A stretch of DNA of 64,000 nt, from the NCBI RefSeq assembly GCF_003018255.1, contig NZ_CP027440.1; one strand, written 5' to 3'. The stretch is from Escherichia coli (GTDB lineage: Bacteria > Pseudomonadota > Gammaproteobacteria > Enterobacterales > Enterobacteriaceae). The notes below the pieces were generated by a model. It saw only the letters and a program-made list of their open reading frames with translations. It ran no database searches and had not been told where the DNA came from. Both the position numbers and the translations under genes were made by a program. Position 1 is the first letter of the stretch. Every line of letters starts with the position of its first letter. Of the stretch, positions 23,751 to 30,559 are shown one piece after another.

Positions 23751-23809
23751 CTTGCGGGTTATAAAACCAGCATGTCCTTGCAATAGTTTCAGTATGGTAT
23801 TAGCATTGA

Positions 23810-23894
23810 TGCGTTAGATGATGGCTATCTCACTCCAGTCAGAGCCACCAACTCAGGGCTGGAAAGTAAAAAACCGACGCAAAGTCGGTTTTTT
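23810..23894 (+). ncRNA. agrA: agrA-like small RNA (dinQ-homologous antisense repeat)
   Basis: Repeat unit sharing GCTATCTCACTCC with dinQ (antisense) and ending in terminator CCGACGCAAAGTCGG plus TTTTTT; ends approximate. Confidence 0.65.
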
Positions 23895-24043
23895 ACATCC
23901 GGATTCGGACAAGGCCTGGTACGGCAGCGACCCGATGAAAGTATATAAATCCTCTTTCACCAACATGTATAGCAAACTGTCCCTCCGCCAGCTGAAGAAA
24001 TCGCTAACGCTTGCAATGTTAGCCACTGGCTAATAGTATTGAA

Positions 24044-24128
24044 CCGTTAGATGTGGGCATTCTCACTCCAGCCAGAGCCACCAACTCAGGGCTGGAAAGT
24101 AAAAAACCGACGCAAAGTCGGTTTTTTT
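24044..24128 (+). ncRNA. agrB: agrB-like small RNA (antisense regulator of dinQ)
   Basis: Second repeat unit; carries GCATTCTCACTCC exactly complementary to dinQ 23558-23570; same terminator hairpin plus T7. Confidence 0.65.
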
Positions 24129-24201
24129 ACGTCCTGATTCAGACCTCCTTTCAAATGAATACCCAACTCAAAATTCACACCTATTACCTTCCTCTGCACT
24201 T

Positions 24202-26416: not shown

Positions 26417-26462
26417 AGCGGCGATATCCACTGCCCATAGTTGGTAAAGTGCGCTTTGTTTA

Positions 26463-26500
26463 TGTCGGATGCGACGCTAACGCGTCTTATCCGACCTACA
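26463..26500. repeat. REP-like palindromic element downstream of arsC
   Basis: GTCGGATGCGACGCTAACGCGTCTTATCCGACCTAC resembles the REP consensus. Confidence 0.5.
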
Positions 26501-26538: not shown

Positions 26539-26835
26539 TCAGGCAATTTTGCTATTTACGCAGCACTCCTCGCGTAAGAATTCAATTATCGCTTCCAGCA
26601 TTGCGTATTGCGAAACACACATCAGCGTTCGACTCTCACGGTTTTGTTTGACCAGCCCTACCGATACCAGTGCTGAAATATGGTGACTGAGTGTAGAGCC
26701 GGGTATCCCAAGCTGCTTTTGCAACTCACCGACCGGCAACCCTTGTTCCCCGGCTTTGACAAGATGTTTAAATATGAACAAACGGGTCGGGTGACCTAGC
26801 TCTTTCAGCGCTTTAGCGACTTCTTCCAACTGCAT
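26539..26835 (-). CDS. ArsR/SmtB-family transcriptional regulator with C-terminal vicinal cysteines
   Basis: wHTH signature GIPGSTLSHHISALVSVGLVK; C-terminus ...EFLREECCVNSKIA; start set at MQLEEVAKALKEL with SD GAGGGGG about 6 nt upstream (ORF track gives a longer 119-aa form). Confidence 0.75.
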   Translation of the reverse strand: MQLEEVAKALKELGHPTRLFIFKHLVKAGEQGLPVGELQKQLGIPGSTLSHHISALVSVGLVKQNRESRTLMCVSQYAMLEAIIEFLREECCVNSKIA

Positions 26836-26941
26836 ATGATCCCCCTCTGTCTGGTTGATATTTCGATAATACCAGAAATATCTTGATCTGAATTTCATTT
26901 CGATTATTCTGGAAATATAGATTTATTCAATGAGGTTATGT

Positions 26942-27943
26942 ATGAGTAGTTGGCTTGCGATGCTGCAAGATGCCACAGAGATGTTTGTGTTTCTCGCCGT
27001 CGAGCTTTCTTTGCTGTTTATAGTGATTAGTGCCGGTGTGAGCCTGATAAGACAAAAGGTGCCAGACCATAAAATCCAGCAGATGATGGGGGCAAGAAAA
27101 GGGAAAGGCTATCTCCTGGCTGCTCTGTTGGGAGCCGTCACCCCGTTCTGTAGTTGCTCGACAATCCCTATGTTACGTGGATTGTTATCAGCGAAAGCCG
27201 GGTTTGGTCCGACCCTCACTTTTTTATTTGTTTCCCCATTACTTAATCCCATTATCGTCGGGTTAATGTGGGTGACCTTTGGCTGGAAAGTTACCTTGTT
27301 GTATGCGATTATCGCCGCCGGCGTCTCCGTACTTGCCAGTATTATCCTCGATTCTCTGGGATTTGAACGTCATATCATTGCCAGTAAAAGCTCATCAGCA
27401 AATTGTTGTGCTCCAGCCAAAACTTCGCCGGGGACGACATATACGCCAATAAAAGTGAGTTGCTGTAGTCCAGCGGCTAAAGCCATTGAGAAACCTGTAG
27501 TAAACTGTTGCAGTACCAAAGCTGTGGTAAGTATTAATCCCATAAAACTAGCCACCAAAGATGCGTTGCAACAGTTTAAAGATGTACTGCCATATCTTTT
27601 GTTAGGGGTATTAATAGGCTCTTTTATTTATGGCTTTATTCCCTCAGAGTGGATTGCCGCTCATGCAGGGGCAGATAATCCCTTCGCCATCCCATTGAGC
27701 GCCGTTGTCGGTATTCCGCTATATATCCGGGCAGAGGCGGTTATCCCTCTGGCATCTGTTCTGATGACAAAAGGAATGGGTCTGGGAGCATTAATGGCAT
27801 TAATCATCGGCAGTGCCGGCGCAAGCCTGACGGAAGTGATATTACTTAAATCAATGTTCAGAATACCGATGATAGTTGCATTCCTGACGGTTATATTAGG
27901 TATGGCTATCTTGATGGGCTATTTGACTCAAATGCTATTTTAA
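26942..27943 (+). CDS. ArsP-like permease (DUF318/COG0701 family) with TPFCSCS motif and a cysteine-rich central loop
   Basis: Polytopic membrane protein; motif GAVTPFCSCSTIP; central loop with three CC pairs (NCCAPAK, SCCSPAAK, NCCSTK); start set at MSSWLAML preceded by GAGGT (ORF track starts 4 codons earlier). Confidence 0.7.
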   Translation: MSSWLAMLQDATEMFVFLAVELSLLFIVISAGVSLIRQKVPDHKIQQMMGARKGKGYLLAALLGAVTPFCSCSTIPMLRGLLSAKAGFGPTLTFLFVSPLLNPIIVGLMWVTFGWKVTLLYAIIAAGVSVLASIILDSLGFERHIIASKSSSANCCAPAKTSPGTTYTPIKVSCCSPAAKAIEKPVVNCCSTKAVVSINPIKLATKDALQQFKDVLPYLLLGVLIGSFIYGFIPSEWIAAHAGADNPFAIPLSAVVGIPLYIRAEAVIPLASVLMTKGMGLGALMALIIGSAGASLTEVILLKSMFRIPMIVAFLTVILGMAILMGYLTQMLF

Positions 27944-28523
27944 ATAGATGCCAGCAGTAAACTATAAGGAGCATTGTGAGTGCCTTATCCTTCTGAGTAG
28001 AAAATCATAGATAGGATAATCCTTAAAAATCACAAATAACTTAACTAATGCTTTGAGAATGATGACGGATCCGTCAGTAAGTTATCAATCGACAATCACC
28101 ACGCAATCATGCTTCTCTGACATTTTATCGGAGAAGCAATGTCTCTTTGTTTCAGTGCTATCCCCCCTTTTAAAGGGCAGATTTCAGTCGCCAATACAAC
28201 ACATTTTTAAATACACTTTAACCTGGTTCATTATTACACATCTAAAACATCACAAAAATATCACTTCACACACTATCGGTGAACATCATAACTTTTTAAA
28301 ATGAGCGCTTTTTGATAGTTGTTAACGTTTTCCTTTACGATACTATCACTGCCCTTTTTTTATACACAAATATTACCGGGTGGAAATGAAAGGGAAGTTA
28401 AAGGTAATTATATCAGGAAGATATGACGCATTGTGTTTATTTCCGCGTAGAAGAAAATCCATTCCTGCTCTAATTCTCCGATTTACAAAAATTTAGCGAA
28501 ATAGATGAACAATAAGGAATGTT

Positions 28524-29747
28524 ATGTCAATTGACTTTACCCCATGTATGATAAATACATATCACGGCGATATTTATAACCGCACAACAGATACCGACAA
28601 TGTTAAAACACCAGACACACCGAAGTGGCCTTGCGATAATTGGGAAGAACAACAACCCATTAATTCCACATTCTCTGGAGAAGGATATACCTCTGATCAA
28701 TATGATTTAGCGCAATACCAACTTCAACAAATTAATGCGTGCCACACGAACACTACATATACAAATGCAGACTACTCAAAAGTTGTGGCTCAACTTGTAA
28801 GTCTTATTACTAACATTGAAACGATAAGTTCGACACAACTTACGCAACAGACACAATCAATACTTAATCAGATTAATAACATTAGATACGAAAAAAACAA
28901 AAGTGCTGAATATCGAATCATTGTTGTCGCTAATCCTAAACCCGACAAGGCAATCATAACTAAAATTAGCGTAGAAGAGGGAATACCAGTAAGATTCAGT
29001 GTCCAAACCATGTTTTCAGATACTAATTTTATTACTGAACAACGAGCTGACTTACCGACTAATATAAAAGATATTCAAAGCCTGTATCAAAAAATGACGA
29101 AGTTATATATTGAACACAGTGAAAATAAAAACAGGATGAAAGTCTTTGCTGGAACCAACTTTATTGATTTCAATGTGACAGGACAGGACCTTTCCGGGTT
29201 CGTTCTAACCTTGTCAAGGTTTTATTTCGAAGATCTACTTAATATAAATTTCACTGACGCAAATTTAGGTGACACTATTTTTTCACATAAAGAACACCCT
29301 ACCCCAAAATTATATAAAGACGAACAATATCTTGACAAACAAATCGAAGGTTTATTTTCAACATTATTAACCATTAATGACAACTTTTTACGAGCAAAAG
29401 CGGAAATTGCTTCGACAATAATTAAATTCTTAGAGGCCAGGATAACCAATATTTCATACAATGACATATTAAAATATCAGCAAGAATTCAAAAAACAATG
29501 TTATAAGCAAGTTAAAGCCTTTACGACACTCTCCCGATACAATAAAATTCAAACATGGGCAGAAATGTCTGAATATCAATTCGAAGTATTTCAATACGAG
29601 ACGCTTAACCCAAAAAAAATGTCATACGCACCTTATTTAAAGAGATCGCTACCTGATGAAAAAACTATAAATTATGGGGTGGAAATAGAAACACCAACTG
29701 GCAAAAGAATTCGCTTATTAAATCATTACCAGAATATAATCCCATAA
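28524..29747 (+). CDS. yhiS: YhiS-like hypothetical protein, intact
   Basis: 407-aa AT-rich ORF immediately upstream of slp; call rests on position and product size, not on motif recognition. Confidence 0.6.
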
Positions 29748-29992
29748 TATTGAACATTAGCACTTTATAATCATTGAATAAAAATAGATTTTATGTACCT
29801 TTAAAAAAAGGCTATTTTATGGGGCGATGGATACTCATGTCACGCCCCAAAATTAACAGAATTAAACTAAACAGAAGGGATATAAACATCAGACAGGTTT
29901 ACGTTACTATCAGGCATATCGCCTCAGAATCAGATGAAAACTATAAAGAAATATCTATTATGGTTTTAATATTTGTTGATAAGGATAGTAAC

Positions 29993-30559
29993 ATGAACAT
30001 GACAAAAGGTGCACTCATCCTCAGCCTTTCATTTTTGCTTGCCGCATGTAGTTCAATTCCGCAAAATATCAAAGGCAATAACCAACCTGATATTCAAAAA
30101 AGTTTTGTTGCTGTTCATAACCAGCCGGGGTTATATGTTGGTCAACAAGCGCGCTTTGGCGGGAAGGTTATCAACGTTATCAATGGCAAAACGGATACGT
30201 TGTTAGAAATCGCTGTATTACCGTTGGATAGCTATGCGAAGCCTGATATTGAAGCCAACTATCAGGGCCGACTGCTCGCCAGACAAAGCGGCTTCCTTGA
30301 TCCAGTGAACTATCGTAATCACTTTGTTACCATCCTCGGTACCATTCAGGGTGAACAACCTGGCTTTATCAATAAAGTCCCGTATAACTTCCTGGAAGTG
30401 AATATGCAGGGCATCCAGGTGTGGCATTTGAGAGAAGTGGTTAATACCACCTATAACCTGTGGGATTACGGCTATGGTGCATTCTGGCCGGAACCGGGCT
30501 GGGGCGCGCCTTACTACACCAATGCGGTGAGTCAAGTAACACCTGAGCTGGTCAAATAA
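29993..30559 (+). CDS. slp: Outer membrane starvation lipoprotein
   Basis: Start set at MNMTKGALILSLSFLLAACSS (lipobox LAAC), 188 aa; the ORF track's 261-aa form has an implausible N-terminal extension. Confidence 0.9.
   Translation: MNMTKGALILSLSFLLAACSSIPQNIKGNNQPDIQKSFVAVHNQPGLYVGQQARFGGKVINVINGKTDTLLEIAVLPLDSYAKPDIEANYQGRLLARQSGFLDPVNYRNHFVTILGTIQGEQPGFINKVPYNFLEVNMQGIQVWHLREVVNTTYNLWDYGYGAFWPEPGWGAPYYTNAVSQVTPELVK

Follow-up and report, generated by a model that had tools for sequence, protein, structure and literature searches.

Intact yhiS upstream of slp in Escherichia coli: a weakly constrained, dispensable and apparently genus-restricted gene with a putative pentapeptide-like repeat core

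The locus described here lies in a 64,000-nucleotide stretch of Escherichia coli DNA (referred to as the window), which matches E. coli JNE23-011 (NZ_AP045067.1) with 100% identity. Between the ars operon and slp-dctR, and on the same strand as slp, is an open reading frame (ORF) that runs from an ATG start to a TAA stop and encodes 407 amino acids, in the position and orientation of the orthologues of K-12 yhiS (b3504). The original prediction had placed a 407-aa ORF directly upstream of slp with no insertion sequence between the two, and both parts were confirmed: the ORF is found at 28524-29747 on the plus strand, and no insertion sequence was found in the yhiS-slp interval of the window. 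The interval initially assigned to the gene (27944-29760) is wider, and consists of the ORF, the 580-bp spacer upstream of it, and 13 nt beyond the stop codon. The features of the locus are as follows.

Upstream neighbours: arsB, arsC, an ArsR/SmtB-type regulator gene (26539-26898, minus strand) and a permease gene
Ending at 27943: the permease gene (337 aa), directly upstream of the yhiS spacer
27944-28523, no strand: AT-rich spacer from the permease gene to yhiS, 580 bp, GC 0.347
28110-28138, within the spacer: terminator-like hairpin of the upstream permease gene
28215-28523: spacer segment homologous to the K-12 arsC-yhiS spacer, from sequence comparison with K-12
28514-28518, plus strand: Shine-Dalgarno-like AAGGA read from the sequence, 5 nt ahead of the yhiS ATG
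28524-29747, plus strand: intact yhiS ORF, ATG to TAA, 407 aa
29001-29483, plus strand: best-conserved core, codons ~160-320 (omega 0.16-0.42, sliding-window dN/dS against alleles L006 and L009)
29139-29288, plus strand: ten pentapeptide-like repeats, residues 206-255 (shuffle test)
29265-29268, plus strand: unoccupied IS5 target TTAG, which in K-12 is duplicated on either side of IS5T
29609-29619, plus strand: C3A8 homopolymer tract inside the ORF, where one-base losses give the 371-aa form (O157:H7 and others)
29748-29992, no strand: AT-rich yhiS-slp spacer, GC 0.298, in which between-strain divergence ends at ~29906
29993-30559, plus strand (as yhiS): slp, the downstream neighbour, followed by dctR, chuS and chuA

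An 83-aa ORF at 28053-28304 was treated as spurious because it straddles the boundary of an indel absent from K-12. An Rfam search of the locus returned a single match, a partial REP-like element after arsC, and a promoter scan gave 13 sites where 9.6 were expected, which is uninformative in DNA this AT-rich. The gene itself has a GC content of 0.337 (GC3 0.299), compared with 0.40-0.54 in the neighbouring genes and 0.493 in the whole window, so the marked AT-richness noticed at first holds on direct comparison; the two spacers flanking yhiS are similarly AT-rich. At the base composition of yhiS, a run of 407 codons would be free of stops by chance with a probability of 6e-14.

In MG1655, yhiS is annotated as a pseudogene of two fragments split by IS5T/insH11. 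When the K-12 fragments were joined without IS5, they gave 1224 nt and a 407-aa ORF that is 96.2% identical to the window ORF at the nucleotide level and 93.1% identical at the amino acid level, a similarity clear enough to settle the proposed kinship with K-12 yhiS. The MG1655 annotation and the restored ORF also agree with the statement in the original prediction that the K-12 gene is interrupted by IS5. The K-12 gene has been described as an IS5-disrupted pseudogene holding one of eleven IS5 copies (PMC11677980, PMC8170033), and its IS5 drives deletions and duplications during laboratory evolution (bioRxiv 10.1101/063271, PMC7260982). A protein identical to that of the window is entered in UniProt as YhiS (A0A1Q4P9C1) and occurs on 299 contigs. 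It is virtually certain that the window ORF is the orthologue of K-12 yhiS and a real gene; intact yhiS is already catalogued, and its uninterrupted state is common rather than peculiar to the window strain.

Comparison of intact alleles shows selection on the encoded protein. Relative to the window, dN/dS was 0.39 for the L006 allele, which differs at 14.5% of nucleotides (Fisher p = 8e-8), and 0.36 for the L009 allele, which differs at 24% (Fisher p = 2e-12), with a range of 0.36-0.58 across comparisons. In-frame pN/pS was 0.45-0.57, while shifted-frame controls in the same alignments gave 0.85-0.92 and 1.19-1.31. Every allele class retains 407-410 open codons despite nucleotide differences of 15-24%, whereas in simulations of random mutation with 177 substitutions only a fraction of 5e-5 of the replicas preserved the ORF, and with 285 changes none of 20,000 did. 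The N-terminal MSIxFTP is invariant among yhiS alleles, and outside the core listed above the sliding window gave near-neutral omega values of 0.6-1.2 for codons 80-180 and 320-400. We conclude that yhiS is a genuine protein-coding gene under weak purifying selection.

Allelic diversity at the locus is high. Among 16 intact copies there were 15 distinct alleles (piS 0.175, piN 0.081), and their mosaic patterns need a recombination minimum of Rm >= 21. By protein identity to the window, the alleles form classes at about 92-95%, 82-87%, 76-77%, and 61%, which do not track phylogroup. The divergent block covers ~28427-29906 and breaks off abruptly ahead of slp, where the same comparisons give 99.3-100% identity; synonymous divergence between the E. 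coli classes of yhiS is 0.32, against 0.115 in dctR and 0.033 in slp. The 61% class belongs to cryptic-clade Escherichia, in which gor and ars share 93-96% identity with their E. coli counterparts. In this class, dN is 0.217 in yhiS and 0.013 in arsC, and dS is 0.60 and 0.32 respectively, so that the excess is mostly non-synonymous. The divergence may stem from polymorphism of long standing, from alleles imported out of other Escherichia lineages, or from a mutation rate that is raised locally.

Of 5426 complete E. coli genomes, 5417 have the gene, as a single copy, and this holds whatever the pathotype. We sampled 30 complete genomes at even steps down the ranking of the 5,417 matches, and found intact yhiS (406 or 407 aa) in 15 of them and lesions of at least six kinds in the other 15. 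Five genomes share a one-base deletion at 29284; in four the product ends at 281-282 aa, while the fifth (L005) has three further frameshifts, four in all, and a first open frame of 371 aa. A one-base loss in the C/A tract, giving a 371-aa product, occurs in three genomes, as C4A6 in two of O157 type and as C3A7 in PSS-12. The remaining lesions are an IS5 insertion (one genome), an internal deletion of ~0.9 kb (five genomes), and near-total loss (one genome). Because half of the sampled genomes carry such varied lesions, we consider yhiS dispensable and repeatedly inactivated in different lineages. The 407-aa form is the ancestral one, and no other form reads through the last 30 residues, which are strongly conserved, in the proper frame. 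A gene drifting to loss would, however, also be expected to show an overall omega of ~0.46, termini that evolve almost neutrally, and disruption in half of the genomes.

A HMMER scan of 1.84 billion representative proteins returned one full-length YhiS cluster, and the remaining matches were nearly all fragments from E. coli, apart from four long pentapeptide-repeat proteins of unrelated origin, which match YhiS residues ~205-285 (E = 1.5e-5 to 1.5e-4). All named YhiS homologues come from E. coli, Shigella, or cryptic-clade Escherichia isolates, and none of the phage genomes searched carries yhiS. Three "plasmid" matches were rejected as 4.8-4.9 Mb chromosomes mislabelled as plasmids. From the single full-length cluster, the Escherichia and Shigella origin of every named homologue, and the lack of copies on phages and plasmids, we class yhiS as a chromosomal orphan confined to the genus Escherichia (with Shigella and the cryptic clades as well as E. 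coli). The only match in a peptide-pattern scan of species genomes, in an Ensifer assembly, proved to be a 409-bp contaminant contig at 0.77x coverage, and is uninformative on other Escherichia species.

The encoded protein is soluble, with neither a signal peptide nor a transmembrane segment (maximum Kyte-Doolittle 19-residue score 0.90). Its first ~55 residues are predicted to be unstructured and are rich in T, N, I, and S. The likeness to pentapeptide repeats, described in the original prediction as faint, turned out to be real, though short and degenerate. The repeat run of residues 206-255 (50 residues) falls in the best-conserved part of the protein and includes the 11-residue motif that had first drawn attention (residues 243-253). 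The repeats are tandem and of the A(D/N)LXX type: all 10 have a hydrophobic residue at the centre, 6 of 10 have N or D just ahead of it, and the period-5 score is 16 of 20, compared with a maximum of 14 and a mean of 9.1 in 20,000 shuffles. In a PDB search, the only matches with any consistency were the pentapeptide proteins 2f3l (E = 0.0057, profile) and 3n90. Similarly, hhalign gave 79% probability against P0040 and 8-15% against two other pentapeptide proteins, and P0039, one of the four non-Escherichia matches, was confirmed as a pentapeptide-repeat protein by Pfam (8e-12). These results support pentapeptide-type repeats in YhiS, which is a putative rather than a formal member of the family.

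Profile and structure searches of YhiS itself had been suggested as checks; they yielded the pentapeptide matches, but no Pfam pentapeptide score and no usable model. None of the pentapeptide models (PF00805, PF13599, and PF13576) scores YhiS even at E <= 10, and Pfam gave merely three unrelated matches, all above E = 0.03. The lone NCBIfam match is QnrB, at residues 209-254 (E = 0.12; 12.3 bits against a cut-off of 460). AlphaFold2 with the full alignment modelled the whole protein at a pLDDT of 33, and on residues 178-272 it reached 54; the models, too poor in quality for use, show helices and no beta-helix. A role as an anti-phage defence or phage protein was rejected, with no family match for YhiS in PADLOC, a single PHROGs tape-measure match (E = 0.048) put down to chance, and no phage genome carrying the gene.

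What has been published on yhiS concerns IS5 rearrangements, H-NS and StpA binding, and its status as an "unknown gene," and no functional data were found in it. The H-NS, StpA, and YdeO data all come from K-12, where yhiS is broken. The arsC/yhiS and IS5/slp spacers are "promoter islands," bound by H-NS and linked to horizontally acquired genes (PMC3661553, Table 1), and at arsC/yhiS H-NS binding was seen in all of the ChIP studies compared (PMC3661553). One study cites yhiS among the sites that StpA binds with high affinity (bioRxiv 10.64898/2026.02.10.705075). YdeO binds the yhiS-slp interval in K-12, and its over-expression induces slp-dctR but not yhiS (PMC4222967). The O157 counterpart Z4907 has been described as an "unknown gene" at the border of the acid fitness island (PMC9729726), and no phenotype has been reported for K-12 yhiS mutants or clones (PMC8170033).

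Taken together, we favor, as the probable account, that the window carries the intact ancestral form of yhiS, a weakly constrained, mosaic, and dispensable Escherichia orphan with a conserved repeat core. How such a protein might work is a more tentative matter, and the following mechanism is possible but doubtful. The repeats would fold into a right-handed quadrilateral beta-helix of ~2.5 turns with helical caps, and this may serve as a rigid protein-binding scaffold rather than as an enzyme. H-NS and StpA may keep the AT-rich gene and its promoter region mostly silent, and yhiS would not be driven by the YdeO/Gad circuit that controls the adjoining slp. YhiS may then be made rarely from a dispensable gene, and rare production and dispensability would explain its frequent loss. 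Weighing against the beta-helix are the silence of Pfam, the low-confidence AlphaFold2 models with their helices, and the number of repeats, as ten is short for a stable beta-helix.

Several other explanations were weighed against this account. In RefSeq, PGAP marks the window-identical copy (NZ_AP045067.1, ACXDC2_RS20825) as a frameshifted pseudogene, which could suggest that the frame is open by chance or that an assembly error masks a frameshift. However, three intact copies, including that of the window, are flagged "frameshifted," and the flagged span is always 1117 nt. The 371-aa O157 gene is 1116 nt with its stop, 1 nt less than this span, and therefore the O157 form was the PGAP reference. 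The flag is thus an annotation artefact that uses a truncated form as its yardstick, and not a lesion. Further, the annotations of many genomes list the 407-aa form as intact (e.g., WP_000020615.1 and WP_000029732.1), the 30 conserved C-terminal residues are in frame solely in that form, and the probability of the ORF by chance is 6e-14; we regard this explanation as refuted and give it practically no credence. A DNA-mimic pentapeptide protein of the Qnr/MfpA/McbG type that shields gyrase is hardly more credible. It would rely on the sole NCBIfam match, to QnrB, which lies far below the curated cut-off of 460 bits, and proteins of the Qnr type consist almost entirely of repeats, spanning ~200 residues, while YhiS has ~10 repeats, or ~2.5 coils, and about 350 of its 407 residues are non-repeat.

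Two readings of the fate of the gene deserve more attention. Typical core genes have a piN/piS about tenfold below the 0.46 of yhiS, and this value, together with termini at omega 0.6-1.2, could mean that yhiS is a functionless remnant drifting to loss, and that the window copy has merely not yet been hit. The independent lesions in half of the sampled genomes (IS5, 29284, two homopolymer losses, and two deletions), the four frameshifts of L005, and the absence of a reported K-12 phenotype (PMC8170033) point the same way. Nevertheless, omega is significantly below 1 in the annotated frame alone, the core at codons 160-320 stays at 0.16-0.42, and 15 distinct intact alleles occur among 16 intact copies. 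Alleles 15-24% apart also keep 407-410 codons, which random mutation almost never does, and we consider such decay unlikely. Alternatively, YhiS may act at an antagonistic interface, for example as a secreted effector resembling EspX, NleL, or PipB2, with deep allele classes kept by diversifying or balancing selection and recurrent loss in lineages where the gene would be a liability. Effector genes are frequently pseudogenised, and the synonymous divergence (0.32 between E. coli classes and 0.60 to the cryptic clade, with slp 250 bp away 99.3-100% identical), the mosaic alleles (Rm >= 21) with classes independent of phylogroup, the GC of ~33% and mid-protein repeats with helical flanks like those of O157 Sakai EspX1, and the predicted unstructured, T/N/I/S-rich N-terminus would all suit this idea. 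On the other hand, hhalign gave 1.7% against Sakai EspX1, i.e., no detectable similarity, and no effector was found in the searches of the PDB or of 1.84e9 proteins. No window showed a convincing omega above 1 (1.22 was reached once, on the basis of 5 synonymous changes), and the gene is present in 5417 of 5426 E. coli genomes irrespective of pathotype. This possibility is therefore improbable in our judgment, and we retain the reading of an intact, weakly constrained orphan.

With this reading, the finding of an intact yhiS is real but ordinary, as it represents the normal ancestral state, found in roughly every second complete E. coli genome. A modest point of interest is that the gene is, as far as the database searches go, a clean Escherichia-only orphan in the best-studied bacterium, coding and yet without a homologue or a usable structure prediction. 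By-products of the analysis are the recognition of the RefSeq mislabelling, the proof of coding, statistical support for the pentapeptide segment, and the local excess of allelic divergence. The mislabelling of intact 407-aa copies distorts pseudogene counts at yhiS, and the allelic divergence, far above that of the flanks, is the sole notable extra of the locus.

Among known systems, the type III effectors of the EspX/NleL kind (NleL structure, PMC3013003) resemble yhiS in that their genes are AT-rich (EspX1 GC ~0.32), chromosomal, and comparable in size, and in that a short and degenerate run of pentapeptides is set between unique regions. Unlike them, YhiS has no similarity to EspX1 and no HECT-like ligase domain, and its secretion would be putative. 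With the pentapeptide-repeat proteins of the PF00805 clan (Rfr23, 2f3l; TL15, 3n90), YhiS shares the period-5 pattern; it differs in that ~50 repeat residues are set in an otherwise unique 407-aa protein that no Pfam pentapeptide model scores, and its beta-helix is putative. In O157:H7, Z4907 (WP_001303709.1, 371 aa) is the positional orthologue and ~92% identical over the common part, but one A is lost from its C/A tract (C4A6), and the conserved last 36 residues give way to "CHARLI" and a stop. The closest counterpart is K-12 yhiS (b3504, UniProt P37635), which has the same position between arsC and slp and, after removal of IS5T, the same length of 1224 nt. In K-12, IS5T sits at TTAG in codons 248-249, inside the repeat region, whereas the window copy is whole, and the window has an extra pair of genes, encoding an ArsR-type regulator and a permease, between arsC and yhiS that K-12 lacks.

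Features of the yhiS neighbourhood that vary among strains include one within the gene itself and one between it and arsC:

26539-28214, an ArsR/SmtB-type regulator gene (on the minus strand) and a gene for a 337-aa Cys-rich permease
29609-29619, a C3A8 homopolymer tract within yhiS

The yhiS tract has lost single bases independently on two backgrounds, giving C4A6 in O157 and C3A7 in strain PSS-12, and is therefore a recurrent slippage hotspot. Its A-run also contains a candidate in-frame slippery heptamer (A_AAA_AAA). The O157 loss has affected annotation as well. In NZ_AP045067.1 (E. coli JNE23-011, identical to the window), the intact 407-aa yhiS (ACXDC2_RS20825, flagged over window 28524-29640) is labeled "frameshifted" by RefSeq/PGAP, as is an intact yhiS in each of two further sampled genomes (H2 and H14), because the PGAP reference is the truncated 371-aa O157 protein WP_001303709.1.

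An 89% identical yhiS C-terminus is encoded on a 409-bp contig with 0.77x coverage in the assembly of Ensifer sp. MPMI2T (NZ_SRXN01000179.1), which is almost certainly E. coli contamination. Between strains, window 28427-29906 is very highly divergent, with 74-93% identity per 100 bp against the divergent loci L006 and L009, and this block ends sharply about 90 bp upstream of slp, which is 99-100% identical. A mechanical ORF list offered a 261-aa TTG-initiated frame (29774-30559), which was rejected as slp; the true slp gene encodes 188 aa and begins at 29993, in agreement with the RefSeq annotation.

The regulator and permease genes form a presence/absence polymorphism of about 1.6 kb between arsC and yhiS, found in the window and in about 40% of the sampled genomes. 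Neither K-12 nor O157 has the pair, and it is also missing from the internal-deletion type and from the cryptic-clade locus L009. The permease is distantly related to the SO_0444/SaoE efflux families, scoring under their cut-offs. Directly 3' of arsC lies a REP-like palindromic element (26458-26496) that matches part of Rfam naRNA4, with E = 0.019 and a score under the gathering threshold.

Further upstream, two direct repeats of about 113 bp (23798-23910 and 24031-24144; 86-89% identity in cross-match) lie between dinQ and arsR, and correspond to the small-RNA pair annotated as agrA/agrB in K-12. Immediately 3' of dctR is a heme-uptake cluster beginning with chuS and chuA (31303 to about 40300), which is the known chu island, an insertion that non-A/B1 strains carry within their acid fitness island. 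In K-12, the position next to dctR is occupied by yhiD-hdeBA.
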